NCBI GenBank assembly: GCA_964476405.1
Contig: CAYZCH010000027.1
Span: forward strand, 1 to 35,607
DNA from: an uncultured Desulfurococcales archaeon
GTDB lineage: Archaea; Thermoproteota; Thermoprotei_A; Sulfolobales; Pyrodictiaceae
Reading direction: 5' to 3'
DNA: 35,607 nt
Numbering within the stretch: the stretch's first letter is position 1; each line of letters begins with the position of its first letter. The translations under genes were made by a program, and so were the position numbers. Below the pieces are notes generated by a model that saw only the letters and a list, made by a program, of their open reading frames with translations, did no database searches and was not told the origin of the DNA. Below are positions 908 through 13,504 of this stretch, piece by piece.

Positions 908-1747
908 ATGCAGGCCCAGGAGCTAGCCCTACCCATAGTAGCGGCCGCGGTGACGCTGCTAGCCCCGCCCCTCATGGATGGGCTCAGGAGGAAGGTGTAC
1001 GCCTGGATCCAGCTGAGGGTTGGGCCACCGCTGCTGCAGACATGGTACGACCTAGCCAAGCTGTTCAGGAGGAGGACTACCATGCCGTCTACAGGGAACT
1101 GGCTGTACTACGCCGGCCCGGCCGCCGCACTGATAACGGTGCTCCTAGCAGCCGCGGACGCCGCCTCACCCAGCCTCTCAGCCGTCCTCGGGGGCGTCAT
1201 AGGCTTCTACATGCTGGTCGAGGCCTCCGTGGCCCTCCTAGTGCTCGGCTCCCTGGGGCTCACACCCTACACGAGCATAGGCGGGGTCAGGATGCTGGCG
1301 GTGTCTGGGGCCTCCGGGCTCGGCGTCCTCCTAGGGCTGGCGGGCTACGCGGCCATCAGCCATAACCCGGGGTGCCTGGCCGCCTTCGGGGTGCCGGCGC
1401 TGCCGGCGGCCGCCGCGCTCATCATCGCCGGCGTCGTCGAGCTCGAACTACCCCCCTACAACGTCGCCGAGGCAGGCCCAGAGATAGCCGCTGGCCCCTA
1501 CACGGAGTATCAGGGGCCGCTGCTGGCGGCCGCGCTCATGTCGTCGTGGGGTAGGGGGTACGCGCTGCTCCTCGCAGGCTATACGCTGCTGGCGGGCCCC
1601 CTTGCCGGCATCGCCGCCGCCCTCGCCACGCACGCCGCGTACAGCTTCGTGGCGGGCGTCACGGGGAGGCCTAGGCCGCTGAGGGCCGTGGGGCTGGCCG
1701 CGCTGAGCGTGGCCCTCGGGGCCGCGGCGCTGGCGCTCGCCGCCTAG
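908..1747 (+). CDS. Hydrogenase membrane subunit, HycD/CooK/EchB (NuoH-like)
   Basis: The ATG at 908 comes right after the upstream stop. The N-terminus LMDGLRRKVYAWIQLRVGPPLLQTWYDLAKLFRR matches the NuoH/HycD signature, and the protein is polytopic and hydrophobic. The 692-907 part of the listed ORF overlaps gene 1 and reads as Arg/Pro-rich junk. Confidence 0.8.
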   Translation: MQAQELALPIVAAAVTLLAPPLMDGLRRKVYAWIQLRVGPPLLQTWYDLAKLFRRRTTMPSTGNWLYYAGPAAALITVLLAAADAASPSLSAVLGGVIGFYMLVEASVALLVLGSLGLTPYTSIGGVRMLAVSGASGLGVLLGLAGYAAISHNPGCLAAFGVPALPAAAALIIAGVVELELPPYNVAEAGPEIAAGPYTEYQGPLLAAALMSSWGRGYALLLAGYTLLAGPLAGIAAALATHAAYSFVAGVTGRPRPLRAVGLAALSVALGAAALALAA

Positions 1748-2784
1748 CCGCCGAGCGTTTTCTTGACCTCAAGGTACCTCTTCACTATCGCCTCCCCGAG
1801 CGGGGTCAGTATAGTGTAGCCTCCTCCCCTGCCGCCGCGGTGGCCCTCGAGCAGCCTACCCCCTATCCTCTCCTCGATCTTCTTTATGGCCGAGGCTATG
1901 TATGATGGTTTCAGCCCGAGGGTCCTGCACGCCGCCCTCAGGCTGTGGAGCATTGACACCACCACGAGCACCTCCAGTACCTGCTCGGGTATCCTCACGC
2001 CGCCGCACTCTATCTCGACCCTCACCCTTATCGGTGGGAGGGCCTCCCTGCCGCCGTGGCTGCAGGGGGCGGAGGCTAGCCTGACGAGGTCGGTTATCTT
2101 CGCCCTCTCGAGTGGAACCCCCTGGCCCTGTGGGGCGGTCAGCGGGCACTTGTAGGCGGTGCAGCCGTCTATGTAGAGCTTCCTGCAGTTGTAGGGGCAT
2201 GGGGGCTCGAGCAGGGTGACCGCCCTGCCGCCGGCGTACGCCCTCCTCGCCGCGTAGCCGTACAGTAGGCCGAAGGGGAGGCCCACCCTGTCAAGCAGCT
2301 TCCTGGCCTCCGCGACCACCCTTGGGTCGAAGGGCTTGTAGAGCCTGGGTGCTACACGTATCCTGACGGGCAGCCCGTTGACCTCCAGCTGGGAGGCTAT
2401 CTCGACGCTCCTCTTAGCCTCGTCTATGGAGGTGTAGGCGTAGAGTATTGAGAGCTCCTCCACCCCCTGCTCGTAAAGCATCCTGAGCGACTCGACCGCC
2501 TCACCAAGGTTAGAGGAGGGGGTTAGGACTAGCAGAACCTCCGTGTTCGGCGCACCATAGGTCTTGACGAGGCCGGCGACCCTCCTCACCATGGACGGCG
2601 GCGTCGAGACGACAAGCTTCCTGCTAAGATCCGCCGCGAGCCTGAATACGCCGGGTGTCAGGTGCTCGGGGCTCCACTCGAGAACCAGCGTCTCCCTTGG
2701 GTAGAGGGAGTCGAGTACCTCCTCTAGCCAGTCCTCCCTCATGGGCGTCGTGATGCGGAGGATGAGGGTGTCGAGGGCCGGCAT
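1744..2784 (-). CDS. Putative CO-responsive transcription regulator (CorR-like): unknown N-terminal domain, Cys-rich segment, and C-terminal ModE/LysR-type winged HTH
   Basis: The C-terminus SMLHSLRAACRTLGLKPSYIASAIKKIEERIGGRLLEGHRGGRGGGYTILTPLGEAI fits the ModE-N/LysR HTH pattern. Cys residues lie at aa 196, 200, 208, 213, 241 and 260. The start abuts the V4R gene (ATG directly follows its TAA), and the gene sits next to cooFS. Confidence 0.6.
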   Translation of the reverse strand: MPALDTLILRITTPMREDWLEEVLDSLYPRETLVLEWSPEHLTPGVFRLAADLSRKLVVSTPPSMVRRVAGLVKTYGAPNTEVLLVLTPSSNLGEAVESLRMLYEQGVEELSILYAYTSIDEAKRSVEIASQLEVNGLPVRIRVAPRLYKPFDPRVVAEARKLLDRVGLPFGLLYGYAARRAYAGGRAVTLLEPPCPYNCRKLYIDGCTAYKCPLTAPQGQGVPLERAKITDLVRLASAPCSHGGREALPPIRVRVEIECGGVRIPEQVLEVLVVVSMLHSLRAACRTLGLKPSYIASAIKKIEERIGGRLLEGHRGGRGGGYTILTPLGEAIVKRYLEVKKTLGG

Positions 2785-3375
2785 TTACGCTGCCCTCACT
2801 ACCACCATGAACTGGCAGTAGGGGTCTCCCCTCAGCCAGCAGCTAGTCTCCCTGACTGTCGGTGCTGCACGCATCACGGACTCGACGAGGTACTCTATTA
2901 TGCCGGCCTCCCACTCGCACATAGTCCCCCCTATGCCTATGGAGGGGGTGAGCCCGCTGCAGGATAGGCAGTCGTAGACCCTGAATATGCACCTACCCCT
3001 CCTGCAGCCGAGGAAGTCGAAGAGGCCTATACCCCTCCTCGCGAGCTCGATCCCCGCCTCGACGAAGTCGTCGATGGGGCCGAGGGTCTTCTCAGCATAC
3101 ACGTACCCTGCCCTCCTGACCAGCATCCTGCCGAGGACGGGGTCCGCCATGTATAGTGTGACTAGAAGCCTCCTGTGCGCGGCTGTGACCGCCTTGTCGC
3201 TGGCGCCGTGTATCCTCTGCGCGAAGAACGCCCTCGGCTTCAAGCCGCCGAGCCTCCTAGGATCCTTCACCCTCCTCCACTTCTCCACAGCCTCCCTGAA
3301 CTCCCCCCTACCCACCCTGTACTCCACGTCATCGACTATCTTCTCGAAAAGCCTTATCTTATCGGCTGTATGCAC
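2785..3375 (-). CDS. V4R (4-vinyl reductase) domain protein, CorQ-like sensor partner
   Basis: The C-terminal half YDCLSCSG...MCEWEAGIIEYLVESV...VRETSCWLRGDPYCQFMVVV matches the V4R pattern (E-x-x-C-x-x-x-G-D-x-x-C-x-F). It has a GTG start, is divergent from cooF, and is tightly coupled to the downstream HTH gene. Confidence 0.65.
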   Translation of the reverse strand: MHTADKIRLFEKIVDDVEYRVGRGEFREAVEKWRRVKDPRRLGGLKPRAFFAQRIHGASDKAVTAAHRRLLVTLYMADPVLGRMLVRRAGYVYAEKTLGPIDDFVEAGIELARRGIGLFDFLGCRRGRCIFRVYDCLSCSGLTPSIGIGGTMCEWEAGIIEYLVESVMRAAPTVRETSCWLRGDPYCQFMVVVRAA

Positions 3376-3425
3376 GTCCCATACCCCACAGTAGCTATAC
3401 GTTTCGCTAGGTGAAGATAAAGCTT

Positions 3426-3458
3426 ACCATTATCTCCATGCATCTATGGTCAACCATG
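3426..3458. promoter_or_regulatory. Candidate operator: phased CCAT/ATGG repeats with two overlapping palindromes
   Basis: ACCAT lies at 3426, CCATG at 3436, ATGGT at 3446 and ACCATG at 3453, spaced about one helical turn apart. ATGGT-CA-ACCAT spans 3446-3457 and CCAT-N6-ATGG spans 3436-3449. The element sits in the corQ/cooF divergent intergenic region. Confidence 0.4.
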
Positions 3459-3508
3459 CTCGTCTACGTCGACGGGCCTCGTATACATTAGGTGGTTAAC
3501 TCGACCCG

Positions 3509-3516
3509 ATTATAAG
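3509..3516 (+). promoter_or_regulatory. TATA box for cooF-cooS (near-leaderless transcript)
   Basis: ATTATAAG is centred about 29 bp upstream of the GTG at 3542, within an AT-rich patch of an otherwise GC-rich sequence. Confidence 0.5.
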
Positions 3517-3541
3517 TATTCAAGAGTCCACAACCTACACG

Positions 3542-4105
3542 GTGTGGCTAGTGGCTCCAGCGACACGTGCACAGTACATCATCTACATCGACTACGAGAG
3601 GTGCACTGGCTGTAGGAGCTGCGAGATAGCCTGCGCCGTCGCCCACTCAGCCACCAAGAGCATCTACACGGCGCCTAGGGAGAAGCCTAGGCCGAAGCCG
3701 AGGATAAGGGTGTTCAGGGTCGGGGAGCTGAACGTGCCGATGAGGTGCCTCCACTGCGCCAACGCCCCATGCGTCCGCGTCTGCCCGACAGGCGCGATGC
3801 ACTACACCGAGGAGGGCTTCGTCGTGGTCGACGAGGTCAAGTGTATAGGCTGTGGCCTCTGCACCCTCGTCTGCCCCATAGGGCACCCATACGTGGACCC
3901 GGAGACCGGGAAGGCTGTGAAGTGCACGTTCTGCTACAAGCGTATACGTGAGGGGAGGCTGCCGGCCTGCGTCGAGGCGTGCCCCGTCGACGCGCTGATC
4001 TTCGGCAAGACGAGCGAGGTGCTCGAGGAGGTCAGGGCCAGGAAGGCCTCCGTCCTAGCCCAGGCCTACCTCCTGGGGAGGGACATCCTCCCCAGCCCAG
4101 CCTAG
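3542..4105 (+). CDS. cooF: CooF-type iron-sulfur electron-transfer protein (4x[4Fe-4S] ferredoxin-like)
   Basis: It carries four Cys clusters: CTGCRSCEIAC, CLHCANAPCVRVCP, CIGCGLCTLVCP and CTFCYKRI...CVEACP. It lies directly upstream of cooS. Confidence 0.85.
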   Translation: MWLVAPATRAQYIIYIDYERCTGCRSCEIACAVAHSATKSIYTAPREKPRPKPRIRVFRVGELNVPMRCLHCANAPCVRVCPTGAMHYTEEGFVVVDEVKCIGCGLCTLVCPIGHPYVDPETGKAVKCTFCYKRIREGRLPACVEACPVDALIFGKTSEVLEEVRARKASVLAQAYLLGRDILPSPA

Positions 4106-4109
4106 ACCC

Positions 4110-6032
4110 GTGCCCGGGAGGTGTGCCCCCGTGAAGTCCCCCAAGTCCCTCAGGATAAAGCCGGAGGACGTCACGACCGTCAAGGGCCTTGACAAGCTCA
4201 TATACAAGGCTGAGGAGGAGGGCGTCGAGCTAGCCTGGCACAGGTTCATGAAGCAGCAGCCCCAGTGCGGCTTCGGCCTCCTAGGGATATGCTGTAGGAA
4301 CTGCGCTATGGGGCCGTGCAGGATCAACCCGTTCGGCGGCGAGCCAAGCAGGGGCGTCTGCGGGGCCACCGCCGACACTATAGTGGCGAGGAACCTCATT
4401 AGGATGATAGCGGCTGGCGCCGCCGCGCACAGCGACCACGCCAGGGACATACTCTACGTGTTCCGCGACGTGGTGTGGGGTAGGAACAAGGCGTACAAGA
4501 TAACCGACCCGGAGAAGCTCAAGTGGGTGGCGGGCAAGCTGGGGGTCAAGGTAGTCGGCCGCAACATCATGGAGATCGGCAGGGACGTCGCCGCGATACT
4601 GGAGAAGGAGTTCGGTAAGCAGGACGAGGAGCCCTTGGCGCTCGTGAAGGCGCTGGCGCCGAAGAAGAGGCTGGCGGTGTGGATGAAGGCCGGGATATGC
4701 CCGAGGAACATAGACAGGGAGATAGTAGAGATAATGCACCGCACCCACATGGGTGTAGACGCTGACCCCGTCAGCCTCATAGCACAGGGCGCCAGGGCGG
4801 CGCTGGCCGACGGCTGGAGCGGCTCGATGATGGCCACCCTCCTAAGCGACATAATGTTCGGCACCCCGAAGCCCGTCAAGGCCGTAGCCAACCTGGGTGT
4901 ACTGAAGGAGGACTACGTCAACATCATAGTGCACGGCCACAACCCGCTGCTATCAATGAAGATAGTGGAGGCCGCGATGAGCAAGGAGATGCAGGAGCTA
5001 GCGAGGAAGTATGGGGCTAAGGGAGTCAACGTGGCCGGCATGTGCTGCACGGGGAACGAGGTGTTGATGAGGCTCGGCGTACCAATAGCAGGGAGCATGC
5101 TTATGCAGGAGCTAGCAATAGTTACGGGGGCCGTTGAAGCCGTGGTAGCCGACTACCAGTGTATAATGCCTGCGCTAGTCACCGTCGCCCAGTGCTACCA
5201 CACCAAGCTCATAACCACGGAGAAGAAGGCGAAGATACCGGGGGCGCTACACATAGAGTTCGACCCCGCGAGGGCGGACGAGTGCGCCAGGGAGATAGTG
5301 AGGATAGCGATTGAGAACTACCAGAACAGGGTGCCCGAGAAGGTGTTCATACCGAAGGAGAAGGTGGAGCTGGTGGCGGGCTTCAGCGTCGAGGCAATAC
5401 TCGCCGCCCTAGGCGGCACCCTCAAGCCGCTCGCCGACGCGCTGAGGTCGGGAGTGATAAAGGGTGTCGTCGGCATAGTGGGCTGCAACAACCCGAAGGT
5501 CAAGCACACCTACGGCCACGTCGAGCTGACAAAGGAGCTCATAAAGAGGGACATACTGGTAGTCGGCACAGGCTGCTGGGCGATAGCCGCCGCCCTCCAC
5601 GGCCTCCTCACGCCGAAGGCCGCCTCGATGGCAGGGCCCGGCCTGCGCAGGCTATGCAGCAAGCTCGGCATACCGCCAGCGCTACACATGGGCAGCTGCG
5701 TCGACTGCAGCCGCATGCTCCTGCTCCTCGGCATGCTGGCCGACGAGCTAGGCGTCGACATCTCAGACCTCCCGGTGGCCGGCTCGGCCCCGGAGTGGAT
5801 GAGCGAGAAGGCCGTGAGCATAGGAACCTACTTCGTCGCGAGCGGGGTACTGGTGCACCTCGGAGTCGTGCCGCCAGTGCTGGGGAGCGAGAAGGTCACG
5901 AAGATACTGACCGAGGATCTCGAGTCCATAGTAGGGGCAAGGTTCTACGTCGAGACGGACCCGAAGAAGGCCGCCGAGTACATAGCCGAGTACATCGAGG
6001 AGAAGAGGAGGAAGCTGGGCTGGCCCGCCTAA
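4110..6032 (+). CDS. cooS: Anaerobic Ni,Fe carbon monoxide dehydrogenase catalytic subunit
   Basis: The N-terminus has QPQCGFGLLGICCRNCAMGPCRI (B/D-cluster region). The length is about 635 aa and CooS-like sequence runs throughout. The more likely start is the GTG at 4131, 8 nt after GGAGGTG. Confidence 0.9.
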   Translation: MPGRCAPVKSPKSLRIKPEDVTTVKGLDKLIYKAEEEGVELAWHRFMKQQPQCGFGLLGICCRNCAMGPCRINPFGGEPSRGVCGATADTIVARNLIRMIAAGAAAHSDHARDILYVFRDVVWGRNKAYKITDPEKLKWVAGKLGVKVVGRNIMEIGRDVAAILEKEFGKQDEEPLALVKALAPKKRLAVWMKAGICPRNIDREIVEIMHRTHMGVDADPVSLIAQGARAALADGWSGSMMATLLSDIMFGTPKPVKAVANLGVLKEDYVNIIVHGHNPLLSMKIVEAAMSKEMQELARKYGAKGVNVAGMCCTGNEVLMRLGVPIAGSMLMQELAIVTGAVEAVVADYQCIMPALVTVAQCYHTKLITTEKKAKIPGALHIEFDPARADECAREIVRIAIENYQNRVPEKVFIPKEKVELVAGFSVEAILAALGGTLKPLADALRSGVIKGVVGIVGCNNPKVKHTYGHVELTKELIKRDILVVGTGCWAIAAALHGLLTPKAASMAGPGLRRLCSKLGIPPALHMGSCVDCSRMLLLLGMLADELGVDISDLPVAGSAPEWMSEKAVSIGTYFVASGVLVHLGVVPPVLGSEKVTKILTEDLESIVGARFYVETDPKKAAEYIAEYIEEKRRKLGWPA

Positions 6033-6037
6033 GGCAG

Positions 6038-6044
6038 TCTTTTT
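6038..6044 (+). terminator. Oligo-T tract after cooS (archaeal-type termination signal)
   Basis: TCTTTTT begins 6 nt after the cooS TAA stop. It is followed by a TGTACA-N8-TGTACA hairpin at 6059-6078 and a gap of about 128 bp before cooC. Confidence 0.4.
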
Positions 6045-6160
6045 CCCCTCCAAACTCCTGTACATTAGTTGATGTACACGGCTGAAGCACGTGTAGATGC
6101 TCCTCCATCGCTAGCTCGGCTTATCCGAGGGTGCCGTGTTTAGGGTCTAGAGATGGGTGG

Positions 6161-6994
6161 ATGGTTATCCGGCAGGAGCCCTTCAAGATAATAGTTGCCG
6201 GTAAAGGGGGAGTCGGTAAGACGACGGTCAGCGCCTCGCTGGCGATCATGCTCGCCAAGAGGGGGCATAGGGTAGTCGCTCTCGACACAGACTCGGTTCC
6301 AAACCTTGCCCTGAGCCTAGGCATCCCGCCGGAGGAGGCTTCGAGGATAACCCCCCTGGTCGAGAACACTGAGCTCGTCGAGGAGAGGACTGGGGCCAGG
6401 CCTGGAGGGGGGTGGGGGCTCCTCTTCACCCTCACGCCCAGGGTCGACGACATACTCGACAGGTACGGTGTCGAGGCCAGGCATGGGGTTAGGCTGGTCG
6501 TTGTCGGGGGTATAACGAAGCCTGGTGAGGGGTGCCTCTGCCCCTCCATAGCCCTCGCCAAGGCGTTCCTCGCGCACGTGTTCAGGAGCTTTGAGGGCGT
6601 AGTGATAGTCGACTCGGAGGCGGGCGCGGAGGTGTTCGGTAGGGGGCTGGCCGAGTACTTCGACCTCATGGTGGCGGTCTCGGAGCCCACCGTGAGGAGC
6701 CTCTCGATAACCAGGAGGCTCATAGAGCTGGCGAGGGGGCTGAGCGTTAAGAGGTTCGTCGTGCTGCTGAACAAGGTGAAGGACGAGCTGGCCGCCAAGA
6801 AGCTCTACGAGAAGGTGATGGGCGACCTAGGCGTCCCCGTGTTCACAGCCCCCTACGACCCTGTACTTGAGGAGTACGAGTCGAGGGGCTTGAGCGTGGC
6901 CGATCTCCCGGACGACTCGGAGCTCTTTTTAGCATTATCCAGCCTCGTCTCCTATATAGAGTCCCTGGTCAAGGGGGAGGGTAGGCGTGTGTGA
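6161..6994 (+). CDS. cooC: CooC-type Ni-insertion ATPase (MinD/ParA-class P-loop) for CODH maturation
   Basis: It has IIVAGKGGVGKTT (deviant Walker A) and the Cys-x-Cys metal motif EGCLCPS. The ATG at 6161 gives a canonical N-terminus, although the ORF is open from the GTG at 6131. Confidence 0.85.
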   Translation: MVIRQEPFKIIVAGKGGVGKTTVSASLAIMLAKRGHRVVALDTDSVPNLALSLGIPPEEASRITPLVENTELVEERTGARPGGGWGLLFTLTPRVDDILDRYGVEARHGVRLVVVGGITKPGEGCLCPSIALAKAFLAHVFRSFEGVVIVDSEAGAEVFGRGLAEYFDLMVAVSEPTVRSLSITRRLIELARGLSVKRFVVLLNKVKDELAAKKLYEKVMGDLGVPVFTAPYDPVLEEYESRGLSVADLPDDSELFLALSSLVSYIESLVKGEGRRV

Positions 6995-7184
6995 GTCGAA
7001 GATAGTCGTCAGGAGGGATTCGGGGGAGGAGGTGCTGGCCGACGAGGTCGCGGCCCTGAAGCCCGGGGAGGCCAAAGCCTACCTGGTTGACGGGAGAGTG
7101 GTCGACCTGAGCGGCTACACCATAGAGTTGATAGACTTCATCAGGCACCGCGTCTACGTTAAGCCCGCCGGGGGGAGATCCTAG
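6987..7184 (+). CDS. cooT: CooT-family small nickel-binding CODH accessory protein
   Basis: The 65-aa product starts Met-Cys (MCESKIVV...) and ends ...IELIDFIRHRVYVKP. This resembles the CooT pattern, with an N-terminal Cys2 Ni ligand and a C-terminal IDxxxHxI motif. The gene overlaps cooC by 8 nt. Confidence 0.7.
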   Translation: MCESKIVVRRDSGEEVLADEVAALKPGEAKAYLVDGRVVDLSGYTIELIDFIRHRVYVKPAGGRS

Positions 7185-7187
7185 GCT

Positions 7188-8783
7188 TTGATAGACCCGC
7201 CGATGGGGGAGCTGAAGGCCCTCCTAGACCTGGTCGGGCTCGGGGGGCGCTGCAGGGAGGCTGGGGGAGGCCTGGTCTACTGCCGCGCCCCGCCGGGCGA
7301 GGGGCTCCGCGCAGCCGTGAGGCTCCACGAGGACACCGGCTGTAGGCTGACCACGTGCCTGGCCTACGACTATAGGCTCGTTGACGGCTCCTTCCACGTA
7401 GTATACGTGTTCGACTGCCCGAGGCTCGGGAGGTACATAGACGTAGACATAGCCCTCAGCGACTCGAGCGCCGAGTCGCTCGCAGCCCTTATAGACTCCA
7501 TGCAGTGCACGTGGTGCGAGTGGGAGGCGAGAGACCTCTACGGTATACGGTTCAGGGGGCACCCGGGTAGGGGGAGGCTCATACTCCCCGACTCCTGGCC
7601 GGAGGACTACCACCCGTTGAGGAAGGATGCGCCGAGGAGGCCGCCCTCCCCCGTCAGCCAGGCGCCGAGGAGGCTGCGGGGCCCGGGTATGCCGCTGGGC
7701 CCGTACCACCCGGCGCTCCATGAGCCGGAGTACTTCGAGCTTGAGGTCGAGGGGGAGAGGGTAACCGGCGTCAGGTACCGTGGCTTCTTTGTTTATCGTG
7801 GTATTGAGAAGCTTGCTGAGGATAGGTTTGGTTTTATGCAGGTGCCGTTCCTGGCTGAGAGGATATGCGGTATATGCGGCTGCGTGCACTCATCATCATA
7901 CTGCAGGGCCGTCGTGATCGCTCTAGGCGTGGAGCCGCCCGAGAAGGCTAGGTATGTGCGTACACTGCTCCTGGAGCTGGAGAGGATACACAGCCACCTA
8001 CTATGCACGGCTGTCATGCTTCACGCAGCCGGCTACGACACGGGATTCATGCAGCTGATGGGGCTCAGGGAGGAGGTGATGTCGGTGGCCGAGCTGTTGA
8101 CAGGCAACAGGAAGACCTACTCAGCCAACATACCGGGCGGGGTGAGGGTTGAGGTCGACAGGGACAGGGCTAGGGGCTGTGTTGAGAGGGCGGCGGCCGC
8201 CGCCCTGAAGGCGGTGAAGCTGGCCAGGAGCTTCCTCGACGTCTCCGAGGTCTACACGAGGCTCAGCGGAGTGGGCGTGTTGAGCAGGGAGGATGCGTGG
8301 AGGCACGGCGCCCTCGGCCCCGTCGCCAGGGCCTCCGGGATAGACGTCGACGTGAGGAGGGATCACCCGTACGCGGCCTACGGGGAGGTCGAGTTCGAGG
8401 TACCCGTAATGGATGAAGGGGACGCCCTCGCAAGATACCTGCTCCGGCTAGAAGAAGTCGAGCAATCGGTCAGGATACTCAGGCAGGTGGCCTCCTCCCT
8501 CCCGGAGAAGGGCGCCTGGAGGACTGAGCCCCCCTACGAGGAGCTAAGGGTGGGGCAGGCGGCCTCGGAGGCCCCGAGGGGTGAGTGCATACACTACGTC
8601 ATCACGGGGCCCCATGGGAGGCTCTGGAGGTGGAAGGTGAGGGCGCCGAGCTACAACAACATACCGCTCCTCAGCCTCATGCTCAAAGGCTACACGGTTG
8701 CAGACGCCCCCGTCATAATCTCCAGCATAGACCCATGCTTCTCATGCACAGACCGCGTAGCCGTGGTGGTGAGGCGTGGGTAG
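7188..8783 (+). CDS. Group-4 [NiFe]-hydrogenase large subunit fused to an N-terminal NuoC/CooU-like domain (HycE-type architecture)
   Basis: The N-terminal Ni-binding motif RICGICGCVH lies at 7860-7889 and the C-terminal motif DPCFSCTDR at 8730-8756. The first ~165 aa carry the NuoC-like LYGIRFRGHPGRGRLILPDSWPEDYHPLRKD. The start is the TTG at 7188 or the ATG at 7203. Confidence 0.9.
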   Translation: MIDPPMGELKALLDLVGLGGRCREAGGGLVYCRAPPGEGLRAAVRLHEDTGCRLTTCLAYDYRLVDGSFHVVYVFDCPRLGRYIDVDIALSDSSAESLAALIDSMQCTWCEWEARDLYGIRFRGHPGRGRLILPDSWPEDYHPLRKDAPRRPPSPVSQAPRRLRGPGMPLGPYHPALHEPEYFELEVEGERVTGVRYRGFFVYRGIEKLAEDRFGFMQVPFLAERICGICGCVHSSSYCRAVVIALGVEPPEKARYVRTLLLELERIHSHLLCTAVMLHAAGYDTGFMQLMGLREEVMSVAELLTGNRKTYSANIPGGVRVEVDRDRARGCVERAAAAALKAVKLARSFLDVSEVYTRLSGVGVLSREDAWRHGALGPVARASGIDVDVRRDHPYAAYGEVEFEVPVMDEGDALARYLLRLEEVEQSVRILRQVASSLPEKGAWRTEPPYEELRVGQAASEAPRGECIHYVITGPHGRLWRWKVRAPSYNNIPLLSLMLKGYTVADAPVIISSIDPCFSCTDRVAVVVRRG

Positions 8784-9291
8784 GGCTACAGCACTCCTCA
8801 CAGCCCTGAGGCTCGGGAGACTGACCACCAGGTACCCCTACCAGCCGTCGCCAGCCCCACCCGAGTACCGCGGCCCCCCAGTGTTCCTCGAGGACAGGTG
8901 CGTCGGCTGCGGAGCCTGCATGTATGCGTGCCCGGCGCAGGCCATAAGCGTGAGGTATGAGGAGTCCGACGACATAGTCGTCCTCGAGCACAGTGTAGCC
9001 AGGTGCATCTTCTGCATGTTCTGCGCCGATACGTGCCCGCATGGAGCCATAGTGAAGACCAACATCTATGAACTGGCCACAGACAACCCCAGGGACCTCA
9101 TACAGAGGGTCGAGCACAGGCCAGCCCACTGCGCCGACTGCGGCGAGGCATACTCCACGCTCAGGGCGGTCTCGAGGGCGGCTGAGGGGGCCGGGGGGCT
9201 GCAACGCTACATGCTCCGCTGCCCGGCCTGCAGGGCCCGAGGCGTAGCCGAGGTGATAGCGTCCTCGAGGAGGGGTGGCCTGGTTGCCTAG
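8776..9291 (+). CDS. Hydrogenase 2x[4Fe-4S] ferredoxin subunit (HycF/CooX/NuoI-like)
   Basis: It has CVGCGACMYACP and CIFCMFCADTCP, plus a C-terminal CADCG...CPACR pair like that in E. coli HycF. It overlaps the large-subunit stop. Confidence 0.85.
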   Translation: MGRATALLTALRLGRLTTRYPYQPSPAPPEYRGPPVFLEDRCVGCGACMYACPAQAISVRYEESDDIVVLEHSVARCIFCMFCADTCPHGAIVKTNIYELATDNPRDLIQRVEHRPAHCADCGEAYSTLRAVSRAAEGAGGLQRYMLRCPACRARGVAEVIASSRRGGLVA

Positions 9292-9760
9292 GAGGAGGAG
9301 CCTCTGGGTCTACCACGTGAACACCGGTGGCTGCAACGGGTGCGACATAGAGCTCCTCGCAGCCCTAAGCCCTGTCTACGACCCGGAGAGGTTCGGCGTC
9401 AAGCTCGTAGAGTCGCCGAGGCACGCGGACGCCTTCGTCCTCAGCGGCCCGGTGACCGTGCAGAGCCTCCCGAGCGTGCTGGAGGCGTTCAGGGTCGGCA
9501 GGCCGGAGGCCGTGGTGGCGCTCGGCTCCTGCGCCTGCGGCGGCGGCATATGGCACGACAGCGCGGCAGTCCTAGGAGGCATAGACCCGCTGCTCAAGCT
9601 GCTCGAGGAGGAGGGGATCCCCAGGCCTAGGGTTATACGCGTGCCTGGCTGCCCGCCGAGGCCCCACGCGATACTCTACGGGGTCGCAGTCCTCCTCGGC
9701 CTCGCCGAGGTGAAGGCAGCCAAGCTCCTGGCGGAGGCGAGGCAAGCGGCTAGGATTTAA
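9275..9760 (+). CDS. Group-4 [NiFe]-hydrogenase small subunit (HycG/CooL/NuoB-like)
   Basis: It carries the NuoB-family proximal cluster ligands NTGGCNGCDIE, GSCACGGG and VPGCPPRP. Confidence 0.9.
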   Translation: MAWLPRRRSLWVYHVNTGGCNGCDIELLAALSPVYDPERFGVKLVESPRHADAFVLSGPVTVQSLPSVLEAFRVGRPEAVVALGSCACGGGIWHDSAAVLGGIDPLLKLLEEEGIPRPRVIRVPGCPPRPHAILYGVAVLLGLAEVKAAKLLAEARQAARI

Positions 9761-9850: not shown

Positions 9851-10291
9851 GTGGAGTATAAGTATATTGTACGCATAGCCGCGACGGACATACCCGGAGA
9901 CCTGAAGGTACCCTACGGCCTAGCAATGATAAAGGGCGTGGGCTACAACCTGGCCCTGGCGCTGTGCAGGCTCCTCGGCATAGACCCGAACAAGAGGATA
10001 GGGTTCCTCACAGACGCCGAGATCGCGAGGCTCGAGGAGGCGATAAAGAACCCGAGGGCTGTCGGTGTACCCTCCTGGATGCTTAACAGGAGGAAGGACT
10101 ATGAGACCGGCAGGGACATGCACCTCGTCGGAGCCGACCTGATATACTACGTGAGGAGGGACATCGAGAGGGAGAAGAGGATTAAGAGCTGGAGGGGTAT
10201 ACGCCACGCCCTCGGCCTCAAGGTCAGGGGCCAGAAGACTAGCCGTACTGGGCGCCTCGGCGTGACAGTCGGCGTGTCGAAGAGGAGGTGA
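9851..10291 (+). CDS. rps13: 30S ribosomal protein S13 (uS13)
   Basis: It has [31 protein letters not shown] and [17 protein letters not shown], and it heads the conserved S13-S4-S11-RpoD block. Confidence 0.95.
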
Positions 10292-10296
10292 CGGCC

Positions 10297-10812
10297 ATGG
10301 GTGACCCGAAGAAGCCCCGTAAGAAGTGGGAGAGCCCCAAGCACCCCTGGATAAAGGAGAGGCTGCTCAGAGAGATAGAGCTCATGGGCCGCTACGGGTT
10401 GAGGAACAAGAAGGAGATATGGAAGGCCGAGACGATGGCTAGGAGGGTGAGGCACCGCGCCAGAGCACTCCTAGCCCTCCCGCCCGCGATAAGGGAGGCT
10501 GAGGAGAGGAGCCTCCTGCACAGGCTGATACAGCTCGGAGTCCTCCCCGAGAACGCGACGCTCGACGACGTGCTGGGCCTCACAGCCGAACACTTCCTCG
10601 AGAGGAGGCTCCAGACCATAGTCTACAAGAAGGGGCTTGCAAGGACACCCCACGAGGCGAGACAGCTCATAGTCCACGGCCACATAGCGATAGGGGGTAG
10701 GAGGGTGCGCTCCCCAGGCTACCTGGTCAAGAAGGAGGAGGAAGACCTCGTAGACTACGCCCCCACAAGCCCCTACTTCAAACGCAGGCTCGAGGCCGCC
10801 CAGCAGGCCTAG
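10297..10812 (+). CDS. rps4: 30S ribosomal protein S4 (uS4)
   Basis: The product begins [18 protein letters not shown]. The ATG lies 8 nt after GGAGGTGA, and the ORF listed from 10288 includes 3 extra codons. Confidence 0.95.
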
Positions 10813-10829
10813 GCCAGGGGTGAGGAGCC

Positions 10830-11228
10830 GTGTTCTCCGCGAGGGAGATCAAGTGGGGCGTCGCCCACATATACTCGAGCTACAACAACACTATAATCCA
10901 CATAACCGACCTCACCGGAGCCGAGACCTTCGCCAGGATAAGCGGGGGGATGGTGGTCAAGGCGGACCGTGAGAAGCCCTCACCCTACGCCGCCATGATG
11001 GCGGCCGCGAGGGCTGCCCAGCAGGCAATGGAGAAAGGGATAATGGCGATACATATAAAGGTGAGGGCGCCGGGCGGCCACGGCCCAAAGACGCCGGGGC
11101 CGGGCGCGCAGGCCGCCATAAGGGCGCTCGCCAGGAGCGGCTTCATAATAGGGAGGATAGAGGACGTCACACCACTACCACACGACACGACCAGGAGGCC
11201 CGGCGGCCGCAGGGGTAGGAGGCTCTGA
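10830..11228 (+). CDS. rps11: 30S ribosomal protein S11 (uS11)
   Basis: It has [18 protein letters not shown] and [15 protein letters not shown]. Confidence 0.95.
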
Positions 11229-11267
11229 GGCCCCTCCCGGGCCGCCACCCCCGCGAGGTGTATTGTT

Positions 11268-12125
11268 TTGGGTAGGAGTATCAGGCTCCTCGAGGAGGGC
11301 AAGTATAGGCTCAGGCTGCTGGTCGAGGGCTACCCCCTACCCCTAGTCAACTCTGTGAGGAGGGCGTGCTTCACCGAAGTCCCCGTCATGGCTATAGATA
11401 TTGTCGAGTTCATCGAGAACAACACCGTGTTGTACGACGAGATAATAGCGCATAGGCTCGGACTGATACCGTTGACCAGCGAGGAGGCGCTGAGCCGGTA
11501 CGACCCCCCCGAGAAGTGCAGGGACGCCCCCCTCGAAGACACCCGCTGCTACGCCGTCCTCACACTAGAGGTTCACACCACGAAGACGGAGCCGCAGAGG
11601 ATTGTCTACAGCGGCGACCTCCAGCCAGAGGACCCGGACGTGAGGCCCGTCTACCCCAATATACCGATAGTAGTCATGGCCCAGCAGCAGAGGCTCAGGC
11701 TGCAGGCATACGCGAGGCTCGGGTACGGGAAGGAGCATGCCAAGTGGATACCAGTAACCGTCGCCGCCCACAAGTACCTCCCAGTGCTCAGCTTCGACCT
11801 CGGGAAGCCAGGCGCAGAGGAGTGTGTCAGGTGCATCGAGCAGGCCTACCCCTCGATAGCGGAGAAGATGAGGGAGATGGGTAAGGGGAGCATAGAGGTA
11901 GTAGACGACGTGAACACATCCGCCCTCTACTGGTGCGTCAACAAGAAGTGTGGTGAGGCGGCTAGCCTCAACTATATGCAGGACAGGCTGATACTGACCA
12001 TAGAGACTACAGGCTCCCTAACAGCCCGCAGAGTCCTCTTGAAGGCCGTGGAGGCGGTCGAGGCTAAGGCTAAGAAGCTCCTGGAGGAGGTTGAAGCACT
12101 TAAAACCGGGAACGAGCAGGGCTAG
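11268..12125 (+). CDS. rpoD: DNA-directed RNA polymerase subunit D (Rpo3)
   Basis: It has LVNSVRRACFTEVPVMAIDIVEFIENNTVLYDEIIAHRLGLIPL, and four Cys (CVRC...CVNKKC) consistent with the archaeal subunit-D Fe-S domain. The TTG start lies 7 nt after GAGGTG. Confidence 0.9.
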   Translation: MGRSIRLLEEGKYRLRLLVEGYPLPLVNSVRRACFTEVPVMAIDIVEFIENNTVLYDEIIAHRLGLIPLTSEEALSRYDPPEKCRDAPLEDTRCYAVLTLEVHTTKTEPQRIVYSGDLQPEDPDVRPVYPNIPIVVMAQQQRLRLQAYARLGYGKEHAKWIPVTVAAHKYLPVLSFDLGKPGAEECVRCIEQAYPSIAEKMREMGKGSIEVVDDVNTSALYWCVNKKCGEAASLNYMQDRLILTIETTGSLTARRVLLKAVEAVEAKAKKLLEEVEALKTGNEQG

Positions 12126-12145
12126 GGCAAGGGGTGCGCGCCTGA

Positions 12146-12517
12146 ATGCAGGCAGTCAAGAGGACTGGGCCTACCAACATAGTGCTCCGTAAGACGCTGA
12201 GGAGGCTGAGGAGCCAGGCCAGGAGGGAGAACGCCCCAATATGGCGCTACGTATACGAGCTCTTGTCGAGGCCGAGGAGGCTCAGAATAGTCGTCAACCT
12301 GTCAAAGATAAACAGGCATACGAGGCCCGGAGACGTGGTCGTCGTGCCCGGCAAGGTGCTGGGGGCAGGCACCATAGACCACCCGGTCACCGTCGCCGCC
12401 GCCGCGTTCTCATACACGGCGGTGAGGAAGATAAGGGAGGCCGGGGGGAGGGTTCTACACATAACGCAGCTCATGGAGGAGAACCCGAGGGGGTCGGGGG
12501 TCAAGATAATAATCTAG
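12146..12517 (+). CDS. rpl18e: 50S ribosomal protein L18e (eL18)
   Basis: The assignment rests on the KRTGPTNIVLRKTLRRL N-terminus and the conserved position after rpoD. Confidence 0.9.
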   Translation: MQAVKRTGPTNIVLRKTLRRLRSQARRENAPIWRYVYELLSRPRRLRIVVNLSKINRHTRPGDVVVVPGKVLGAGTIDHPVTVAAAAFSYTAVRKIREAGGRVLHITQLMEENPRGSGVKIII

Positions 12518-12530
12518 GAGGGTGTGCGCG

Positions 12531-13013
12531 ATGGTGGTAGAGGTCGAGCCCCCCAAGCCGCCCGCTAGGATGCTCGTCGTCGACGCGGAGGGCCAGATAC
12601 TTGGGAGGATGGCGAGCATAGTGGCTAAGAAGCTGCTCGAAGGCTACAGGGTAGTGATAGTGACCGCCGAGAAAGCGGTCGTCAGCGGAGACCCGCTCAT
12701 GGTCATAGAGAGCTACCAGAAGCTCCTAGGAGTCAAGGTGCACGTCAACCCCTACAAGTGGGGGCCTAGGAGGCCGAGGGATCCGAGGTGGATAGTGAGG
12801 GATGCCGTCGAGGGCATGCTCCCCAGGTGGAAGGAGCAGGGGAGGAGGGCGGCGAAGAGACTGAAGGTATACATAGGCGTCCCGAAGGAGTACGAGAAGG
12901 CCGAGAAGGTGAAGTTCCCTGAGGCCGACTACAGGAGGCTGGGGCACAAGTTTATACTTGTAGGCGAGATTGCACGCGCAATGGGATGGAAGGGGGTGGC
13001 TGAGAAGCCTTGA
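12531..13013 (+). CDS. rpl13: 50S ribosomal protein L13 (uL13)
   Basis: It has VVDAEGQILGRMASIVAKKLLEG. The ATG at 12531 follows GGAGG, and the ORF is open from the GTG at 12522. Confidence 0.9.
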   Translation: MVVEVEPPKPPARMLVVDAEGQILGRMASIVAKKLLEGYRVVIVTAEKAVVSGDPLMVIESYQKLLGVKVHVNPYKWGPRRPRDPRWIVRDAVEGMLPRWKEQGRRAAKRLKVYIGVPKEYEKAEKVKFPEADYRRLGHKFILVGEIARAMGWKGVAEKP

Positions 13014-13063
13014 GCGAGGCCGCGCAGGGGCAGGGAGCCGGCGGCCAGGAAGTAAGGGTGTTG

Positions 13064-13504
13064 ATGGCTAAGGCCGTCGAGGCCCCGACCAGGAGGGGGA
13101 AGATAAGGATAGTTATAGCGACCGGTAAGAGGAAGACCGCGGTGGCGAGGGCCGTCATAAAGCCGGGGAAGGGCAGGGTGTGGGTCAACGGTGTACCCAT
13201 AGAGCTCTGGCCCGTAGAGATGGCGAGGCTCAAGATGATGGAGCCGCTGCTCCTCGCCGGCAGGGAGATATGGGGGAGCGTCGACATCAGGGTGAACGTG
13301 AAGGGCGGGGGGTACATGGCGCAGGCGGACGCAGTCAGGATGGCTATAGCGAGGGGCCTAGTGGCGTACACGGGGAGCCAGCAGCTGAAGGACATCTACG
13401 AGCAGTTCGACCGCTCAATGATAGCCGGCGACCCGAGGCAGACGGAGCCGGAGAAGCCGATGAGGAGGGGTGCGAGGAGGAGGTGGCAGAAGAGCTACAG
13501 GTGA
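13064..13504 (+). CDS. rps9: 30S ribosomal protein S9 (uS9)
   Basis: It has [23 protein letters not shown] and the C-terminal RRRWQKSYR. The start is uncertain, since the ORF is open from the TTG at 13010. Confidence 0.9.

Follow-up and report, generated by a model that had tools for sequence, protein, structure and literature searches.

Two genes on the reverse strand of a 35,607-nucleotide stretch of DNA from an uncultured Desulfurococcales archaeon (contig CAYZCH010000027.1, hereafter called the window) encode a 196-amino-acid (aa) V4R protein (positions 2785 to 3375) and a 346-aa regulator (1744 to 2784) that are homologs of CorQ and CorR, reportedly described by Kim and coworkers in 2015 as activating the CODH-Mch-Mnh3 cluster (CODH, carbon monoxide dehydrogenase) of Thermococcus onnurineus in response to CO. 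We consider it probable that the locus is a CorQ/CorR-type two-protein regulator of the adjacent genes for CODH and an energy-converting hydrogenase (ECH), in which metal or thiol centers of CorQ and CorR respond to CO. CorR is made of three parts, namely, a barrel derived from radical S-adenosyl-L-methionine (SAM) proteins, a twitch-like hairpin/helix subdomain, and a C-terminal winged helix of the ModE type. Among its relatives, the window protein stands out because it has lost the radical-SAM Cys loop and not because of where its helix-turn-helix (HTH) lies. The CorQR pair as such was already known, while the radical-SAM derivation of CorR and its three natural Cys genotypes appear to be new, as do, for the window pair, the Thermoproteota-related host, the divergent gene arrangement, and a CorR without radical-SAM cluster site. 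This lost site provides a concrete lead on signal sensing by a poorly understood regulator.

Identification of the CorQ and CorR homologs

BLASTP aligned the window CorR to that of T. onnurineus (P0206; P and L numbers are our handles for proteins and loci) with 26% identity over aa 52 to 342 (E value of 2e-26), and the window CorQ was 27% identical to its T. onnurineus counterpart (L010:9447-10001; E value of 4e-15). In T. onnurineus NA1 (L010, CP000855.1), the gene that immediately precedes cooF encodes a 369-aa HTH_1 protein, and this CorR gene is itself immediately preceded by one for a 184-aa V4R protein. The published gene numbers give cooF as TON_1017 and the transcriptional regulator that starts the CODH cluster as TON_1016 (PMC4463584, PMC2718504), so that the 369-aa protein, by its place directly upstream of cooF, is TON_1016. 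A preliminary description of the window, made from the letters of the sequence, had already read the two abutting open reading frames (ORFs) as a CorQ/CorR-like pair placed divergently from cooFS, and the present analysis bears it out. Both ORFs are real and lie where they had been described, the Pfam HTH_1 and V4R models matched above their cutoffs (34.5 and 40.9 bits, respectively), and Pfam confirmed cooF and cooS across a gap of 166 bp.

A word-indexed protein search returned 7 to 9 close relatives of CorR and a scan of genome contigs just two loci, and the Thermococcus clade was reached only by an exhaustive profile search. The latter yielded ~30 full-length cluster representatives of 345 to 381 aa, all with the HTH at the C terminus, and the CorR profile aligned the Thermococcus-type members over profile positions ~20 to 346. 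One of these clusters contained Thermococcus barophilus proteins, and a search started from it led to P0206 of T. onnurineus.

The genomic context was compared in 12 distinct loci, comprising six of the window clade (the window included), T. onnurineus, one locus each from Acidilobales and Desulfurococcales, two others, and one metagenome-assembled genome (MAG) labeled as Asgard. The order of the V4R gene followed by the CorR gene was kept in all 12, and cooF/cooS were visibly adjacent in 10, spread over Pyrodictium-like, Acidilobales, Desulfurococcales, and Thermococcus loci, as expected from the co-occurrence with cooS that the preliminary description had regarded as a check of its assignment. 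The contigs of the two loci without visible cooFS end too early to show the flanks. Thus, the short contig of L013 holds only corQ, corR, and hydrogenase membrane-subunit genes, and that of the Asgard-labeled L014 stops directly after CorR.

Some loci differed in their neighboring genes. In L014 (4271 to 9128; a Candidatus Asgardarchaeia MAG), the V4R-CorR pair is divergent from a gene for an 881-aa fused Fer2/xanthine-dehydrogenase-family molybdoenzyme and a MobA-like gene. In L019 (4552 to 13953), the genes next to CorQR and cooF-cooS-cooC code for an HdrA-like flavoprotein, an FlpD/MvhD-like protein, a Fer4 protein, and CCG-domain (HdrB-like) proteins, with cooT coming after them. These Hdr-like genes occupy the place of the ECH, which suggests that CO oxidation is coupled there to a heterodisulfide-reductase-like module. 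A Thermofilaceae MAG (L002:6671-6898) gave a tblastn match only to the HTH part (aa 258 to 340, 39% identity), which could be another ModE-type or CorR-like regulator.

Domain structure of CorR

The N-terminal domain of CorR, which the preliminary description had been unable to assign, was modeled with AlphaFold2 (AF2) as a radical-SAM-type barrel. The model, built from a 26-sequence alignment (predicted local distance difference test [pLDDT] of 90 and predicted template modeling score [pTM] of 0.70), contains six beta/alpha units at aa 6 to 163, a beta-rich segment at 166 to 211, a helix at 230 to 238, and the winged helix at 267 to 344. From this model, the Foldseek results, and the alignments, we delimited a radical-SAM-like (beta/alpha)6 barrel at aa 1 to 165 (window 2290 to 2784, reverse strand). 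The beta-rich twitch-like subdomain at aa 166 to 262 (1999 to 2289, reverse strand) was drawn from the secondary structure of the model and the Cys table described below.

When the window model was compared to the PDB with Foldseek, the top match was the radical SAM enzyme BlsE (7.8e-5 over 291 columns), with AbmM and GDGT-MAS also listed. Radical SAM fold matches were much clearer with the AF2 model of T. onnurineus CorR (pLDDT of 87), for which predicted similarity was found to MoaA (1.5e-8; TM score of 0.59, target normalized) and SuiB (3.8e-8) and further to SkfB, viperin, BlsE, the twitch enzyme SpeY, AbmM, and anSME. At the sequence level, Pfam Radical_SAM gave subthreshold matches in 5 of 26 family members, in register from profile position 1 to 4. 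A profile of the CorR N-terminal domain matched SpeY with an E value of 0.0014, the CxxxCxxC motif of one aligning on that of the other, and the invariant CPNPLxHP of CorR relatives aligned with the GGEPLLHP of SpeY and SuiB. The N-terminal region of CorR is therefore best modeled as a radical-SAM-type (beta/alpha)6 barrel with a twitch-like Cys-rich hairpin. The modeled layout, a partial (beta/alpha)6 barrel and then a Cys-bearing hairpin and helix, resembles that of MoaA, BtrN, SpeY, BlsE, SkfB, SuiB, and anSME.

The twitch-like subdomain holds a family-wide hairpin, GLPxGxLYGY. Fold matches to the twitch enzymes BlsE, AbmM, and SpeY extend through ~290 to 300 alignment columns, but the middle region has no sequence match. 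The preliminary description had compared the Cys spacing of this region to SPASM/twitch-like segments. The comparison stands insofar as the whole N-terminal part appears to be radical-SAM derived and the relatives carry CxxxCxxC, but aa 160 to 262 lack any SPASM/twitch sequence match; an assignment by sequence was dropped, as the profile of this segment gave chance matches only.

Neither the cluster loop nor the GGE motif of twitch and SPASM enzymes is present in the window CorR, which differs from them also in its fused DNA-binding domain and is presumably noncatalytic. With both loop and motif absent, we rejected the idea that this protein is an active radical SAM enzyme. From the replaced GGE motif, we infer that the CorR family as a whole is noncatalytic.

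The C-terminal winged HTH, which we place at aa 267 to 343 (window 1756 to 1986, reverse strand), was detected by Pfam HTH_1 at aa 270 to 331 (1792 to 1977), with 34.5 bits against a cutoff of 26.6. NCBIfam TIGR00637, the ModE N-terminal domain, matched aa 267 to 343 (E value of 2e-10). Among solved structures, the CorR profiles matched the ModE-like 2ijl (6.5e-11 and 2e-13 for profiles A2 and A4, respectively) and 1b9m. The wing motif of CorR is RGGxGGGYTxLT, and a conserved Cys, C286, lies inside the HTH. ModE, whose winged helix carries an RGG-x-GG-x-x-LT wing, is the closest solved match to this domain. However, its HTH is N-terminal and followed by Mop domains, while that of CorR is C-terminal and without Mop or TOBE. 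In T. onnurineus CorR, HTH_1 was found at aa 287 to 333, and the C-terminal position is the standard architecture of the family, as it was found in all relatives, the T. onnurineus protein included. The HTH position that the preliminary description had noted as unusual is thus atypical with respect to LysR regulators but the norm among CorR proteins.

Two class assignments were rejected for CorR. Membership of the LysR-type transcriptional regulators (LTTR) was discarded given the C-terminal HTH, the absence of a Pfam LysR_substrate match, and scores of 12 to 18 bits with NCBIfam LTTR equivalogs that have cutoffs of 200 to 470. Membership of ModE was discarded given that only the HTH part matches (40.5 bits, under the curated TIGR00637 cutoff of 98.5) and that Pfam and NCBIfam scans gave no Mop/TOBE match.

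Cysteine patterns across the CorR family

The Cys content was tabulated for 42 family members, 10 of the window clade (with CorR identities of roughly 36 to 76%) and 32 others. The window CorR has the pattern C196-PYN-C200-x7-C208-x4-C213 ... C241 ... C260, the same CPYNC-x7-C-x4-C cluster with two further Cys that the preliminary description had reported. Of these residues, C196, C200, C213, and C241, together with C286 of the HTH, are invariant in the window clade (10/10), while C208 and C260 are not conserved. Outside the clade, C200, C213, and C241 are present in most members but C196 is not.

A three-Cys loop at the radical-SAM position is present in all 32 members outside the clade, as a canonical CxxxCxxC in 27 and as close variants in 5 (C14-DAT-C18-AN-C21 in T. 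onnurineus CorR), and 31 of them also have C56, in a Cys-Pro-Asn at the GGE position, which may act as fourth ligand of the putative barrel cluster. All 10 members of the window clade lack both the triad and C56 owing to a deletion of ~20 residues that is seen in alignment A2, and the window CorR has E-W at the GGE position. The statement of the preliminary description that the 346-aa protein has no CxxxCxxC was confirmed by scanning the ORF. A misplaced gene start that would conceal the motif was discounted, as the ORF is maximal, abuts corQ, and shares its N terminus with ten homologs. Three other proteins, P0028, P0029, and P0155, keep the triad and have lost C200, C213, and C241, which are replaced by R/S, H, and G/E. 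Three CorR Cys genotypes can thus be distinguished, those with both sets (Thermococcus), those with the radical-SAM site only (P0028, P0029), and those with the four-Cys twitch site only (the window clade). The gene of P0029 (L018:2339-3442) is adjoined by a V4R gene and cooF-cooS-cooC-cooT, and its Cys pattern is the mirror image of that of the window clade.

In the AF2 model of the window CorR, a beta-hairpin has C196 and C200 ahead of it and C213 behind it, and C241 lies past the next helix. The ligands of SPASM/twitch auxiliary clusters are Cys residues before and after a beta-hairpin (CX9-15GX4C) and after the following helix, and the modeled layout of the window protein matches this arrangement. 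The C200-x12-C213 spacing of the window CorR also fits, and relatives have C-x8-G-x4-C; the region has no SPASM/twitch sequence match. The radical-SAM/twitch fold thus points to specific residues, which in most relatives are the three-Cys loop plus a fourth Cys where the SAM site used to be, and in the window clade the four Cys of the twitch-like hairpin. The natural loss-of-site variants, one clade without cluster site 1 and another without site 2, allow their comparison.

The homology of the window and T. onnurineus pairs extends to the V4R-first order, the abutting genes, the barrel, hairpin, and C-terminal winged helix of CorR, the neighboring cooF-cooS-cooC-cooT and hydrogenase genes, and the Cys residues in common, which are C200, C213, C241, and C286 of CorR and the Cys set of CorQ. 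Unlike T. onnurineus CorR, the window protein has neither the CxxxCxxC loop nor the Cys at the GGE position, and the additional C196 completes its four-Cys set. The two also differ in their hosts, T. onnurineus belonging to the Thermococcales and the nearest named relatives of the window host being Thermoproteota MAGs.

Two starts are annotated for T. barophilus CorR, giving proteins of 372 aa (P0160, P0163) and 340 aa (P0164, P0169, P0162). The 340-aa versions, among which one bears the name "periplasmic molybdate-binding protein," begin 32 residues downstream. This start would drop the CxxxCxxC (residues 14 to 21 of the 372-aa form), which may explain why the motif has been overlooked.

A second archaeal family (P0041, P0043, and P0053; locus L020:6001-7026) combines a radical-SAM-like N-terminal domain with the same ModE-type C-terminal HTH. 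The N-terminal domain keeps GGE but has only an FCxWC motif. There is no V4R partner, and a CooF-like Fer4_11 operon lies in divergent orientation next to the gene. Regulators with a radical SAM fold may therefore form a broader class.

The V4R protein CorQ

The V4R domain of CorQ (aa 131 to 191; window 2803 to 2985, reverse strand) was matched by Pfam with 40.9 bits against a cutoff of 31 (E value of 2.1e-10). In a 12-sequence alignment, C153, E176, C179, and C187 are invariant, and 11 of the sequences have C136-x2-C139. The resulting Cys...Glu-x2-Cys-x7-Cys pattern is in register with the V4R domain of PoxR (5fru), in a weak match with an E value of 0.78. The corresponding Cys and Glu residues of PoxR and MopR hold a structural Zn. 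The V4R domain of MJ1460 (2osd) matched with an E value of 1.2e-6. Among NCBIfam models, the closest was the C-terminal V4R of MsvR (6.6e-8; 32.5 bits against a cutoff of 220), a thiol-based redox regulator. The CxxC pair and the MsvR-like character of CorQ suggest a redox- or metal-reactive element. Membership of MsvR itself was ruled out, as the V4R part alone matches and the Pfam scan found no HTH in the 196-aa protein. While MsvR has an N-terminal HTH fused to its Cys-rich V4R, CorQ has the V4R without HTH. More generally, V4R sensory domains occur in MsvR, PoxR, MopR, and DmpR, but CorQ itself lacks a DNA-binding or AAA+ domain and works with a separate partner.

Proposed mechanism and alternative explanations

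In the mechanism that we favor, CorQ and CorR would form a complex, with the winged helix of CorR binding the 166-bp intergenic region. In the relatives that bear CxxxCxxC, the barrel would be a sensor with a [4Fe-4S] cluster and not an enzyme. In the window clade, C196, C200, C213, and C241 would be the sole remaining candidate metal site on CorR, most likely holding one fully ligated [4Fe-4S] cluster of the auxiliary type, or possibly Zn. CorQ would add a second Cys-rich site, formed by a PoxR-like Cys/Glu/Cys/Cys metal site and a CxxC pair as in the redox sensor MsvR. CO would change the metal or thiol centers of the complex, either by direct binding at the metal/Fe-S site of CorQ or through reduction driven by CODH/CooF, and the changed centers would license CorR to activate cooFSCT-ech from 3376 to 3541.

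Several observations weigh against this proposal. The fold E values of the window model are modest (7.8e-5), with generic TIM barrels close behind, and the window CorR itself has no Radical_SAM or SPASM match in Pfam. The profile of aa 160 to 262 retrieved nothing from Pfam, SPASM and twitch included, and only chance matches from the PDB (TRPA1, E value of ~1). The Cys layout is that of the model secondary structure, the spatial closeness of the four Cys is putative, and these residues could instead bind a structural Zn or form disulfides. Among the intergenic regions of 10 loci, no 6- to 8-mer was common to more lineages than in shuffled controls. The CO responsiveness of the window pair is extrapolated by analogy from the genetics of T. 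onnurineus, as cited in later papers (PMC4791640, PMC6557876). Finally, neither Cys site of CorR is universal, the triad being lost in the window clade and C200/C213/C241 in P0028, P0029, and P0155, so that CorQ alone could sense.

Sensing by CorQ alone, through CO at a thiolate-bound metal or redox at the CxxC, is the leading rival, although we regard it as rather unlikely. CorR would then be the DNA-binding output and its Cys residues structural remnants (for Zn or stabilization of the fold) of an ancestral enzyme. The main argument for this rival is the mosaic loss of the CorR Cys sets. The V4R partner, with C153/E176/C179/C187 (and C136/C139 in 11 of 12), carries the only Cys-bearing elements found in every lineage. 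The similarity of the V4R to MsvR points in the same direction, and sensing has been attributed to the V4R domain in the literature (PMC6557876). However, the four twitch-region Cys are invariant within the window clade over identities of roughly 36 to 76%, and the triad and C56 are kept in 31 to 32 of the 32 other members despite the loss of GGE, which exceeds the expectation for relics. Moreover, the Cys/Glu/Cys/Cys set, as a structural Zn site in PoxR and MopR, is no obvious CO binder.

In another explanation, the pair would not sense CO at all and would use a thiol or Fe-S switch to report on the redox or ferredoxin status of the cell or on some other metabolite, with CO induction being indirect through the activity of CODH. 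A fully Cys-ligated cluster, as proposed for the window clade, would have no Fe site free to bind CO, the V4R belongs to the MsvR type, and the Hdr-like genes of L019 (in place of a hydrogenase) and the molybdoenzyme gene of L014 indicate that the output is not bound to one physiology. Nevertheless, cooF/cooS adjoin the pair in every locus with visible flanks, and deletions of corQ and corR in T. onnurineus, said to have been made in the same 2015 work of Kim and coworkers, reportedly impair CO-dependent growth, which makes this explanation improbable.

We give very little credit to the 346-aa protein being an ordinary LysR/ModE regulator (for instance, molybdate or tungstate responsive) that lies beside the CODH genes by chance, for although databases name such proteins "LysR family transcriptional regulator" or "periplasmic molybdate-binding protein," KEGG K02019 (modE) has been used to detect CorQR (PMC13077300), and the HTH most resembles the ModE N-terminal domain, the Pfam/NCBIfam scans found no LysR substrate-binding, Mop, or TOBE domain, the HTH is C-terminal, the full-length homology is to CorR, and the scores fall far under the NCBIfam equivalog cutoffs.

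Returning to sensing by CorQ and CorR together, a more specific proposal can be put forward tentatively, as a possibility. The CorR family would comprise so far unrecognized noncatalytic Fe-S sensors, derived from radical SAM proteins and joined to a ModE-type winged helix, and the window would hold a minimal CorQR that needs no more than one twitch-type [4Fe-4S] cluster and the Cys-rich V4R partner for the CO/redox-dependent activation of CODH genes. If true, this would be a heme-independent mechanism of gas sensing. A Pfam scan of the window pair detected no heme-binding domain. The heme-based bacterial CO sensors CooA and RcoM have the same output, the induction of coo genes by CO (PMC6557876, PMC13077300), but their folds, Crp/FNR and PAS-LytTR, are unrelated to CorQR.

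We found no paper explaining how CorQR senses its signal, and reviews name only a V4R and LysR-type pair. Nor did we find a link of CorR to radical SAM proteins in the literature covered on CorQR, of which the original 2015 description was not part. To our knowledge, no CO-responsive regulator other than CorQR has been described from archaea. As for its distribution, a 2026 survey detected CorQR through KEGG K02019 (modE) and gave it as "not detected" in both Thermoproteota genomes with Ni-CODH/ECH (PMC13077300). Annotation-based surveys miss regulators such as the one described here, and thus the number of CODH/ECH loci "lacking" a regulator is probably overestimated.

Gene arrangement and regulatory region

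The corQ-corR junction is TAA ATG, with zero spacer between both genes. The pair is arranged divergently to cooF (3542 to 4105; Pfam Fer4_11), cooS (4110 to 6032; Prismane, 5.8e-187), cooC (6131 to 6994; CbiA/ArsA), and a cooT-like ORF (6987 to 7184; CooT), all on the forward strand, and the 166-bp intergenic region between corQ and cooF (3376 to 3541) presumably contains the promoter and operator. These four genes make up the first part of the presumed target operon (3542 to 7184). They are followed on the same strand by the genes of three soluble ECH subunits (7188 to 9760), identified by Pfam as a fused 30-kDa/49-kDa large subunit, a 2x[4Fe-4S] subunit, and a NuoB-like small subunit. The hydrogenase membrane subunits, one Mrp/NuoL-like and one NuoH/HycD-like by their Pfam matches, are encoded on the forward strand at the other end of the locus (45 to 1747), where the NuoH/HycD-like ORF probably spans 908 to 1747. 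It is convergent with corR, and both stop codons overlap in CTAG (1744 to 1747). The same convergence, with an overlap of a few bases, was seen in L003, L006, L012, and L013, and throughout the window clade the ECH genes are likewise divided between the two flanks of corQR. In T. onnurineus, in contrast, the pair is codirectional with cooFS, and compared to that locus, the membrane-subunit genes of the window are on the other side and convergent with corR.

The intergenic region contains a TTATAA box (3510 to 3515) and an inverted repeat, AGATAA-N9-TTATCT, that lies within 3412 to 3438, overlaps a TTTATC box, and is half conserved in the nearest relative (76% identical). In addition, two CGTATA(G/C) elements face each other ~80 bp apart (3395 to 3401 and 3481 to 3487), and CGTATAC was also found in the equivalent regions of L001, L012, and L016. 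Among the 10 corQ/cooF regulatory regions compared, CGTATAC/CGTATAG and ATACGAGG recur. A conserved operator is not supported by these data, as the sharing of elements was not above that of the shuffled controls and the inverted repeat is only half conserved, and these elements serve as no more than a lead.

Downstream from the ECH genes, a ribosomal protein/RNA polymerase operon (S13, S4, S11, RpoD/Rpb3-like, L18e, and L13) occupies positions 9851 to 13504, beginning ~90 bp past the last hydrogenase gene and on the same strand.

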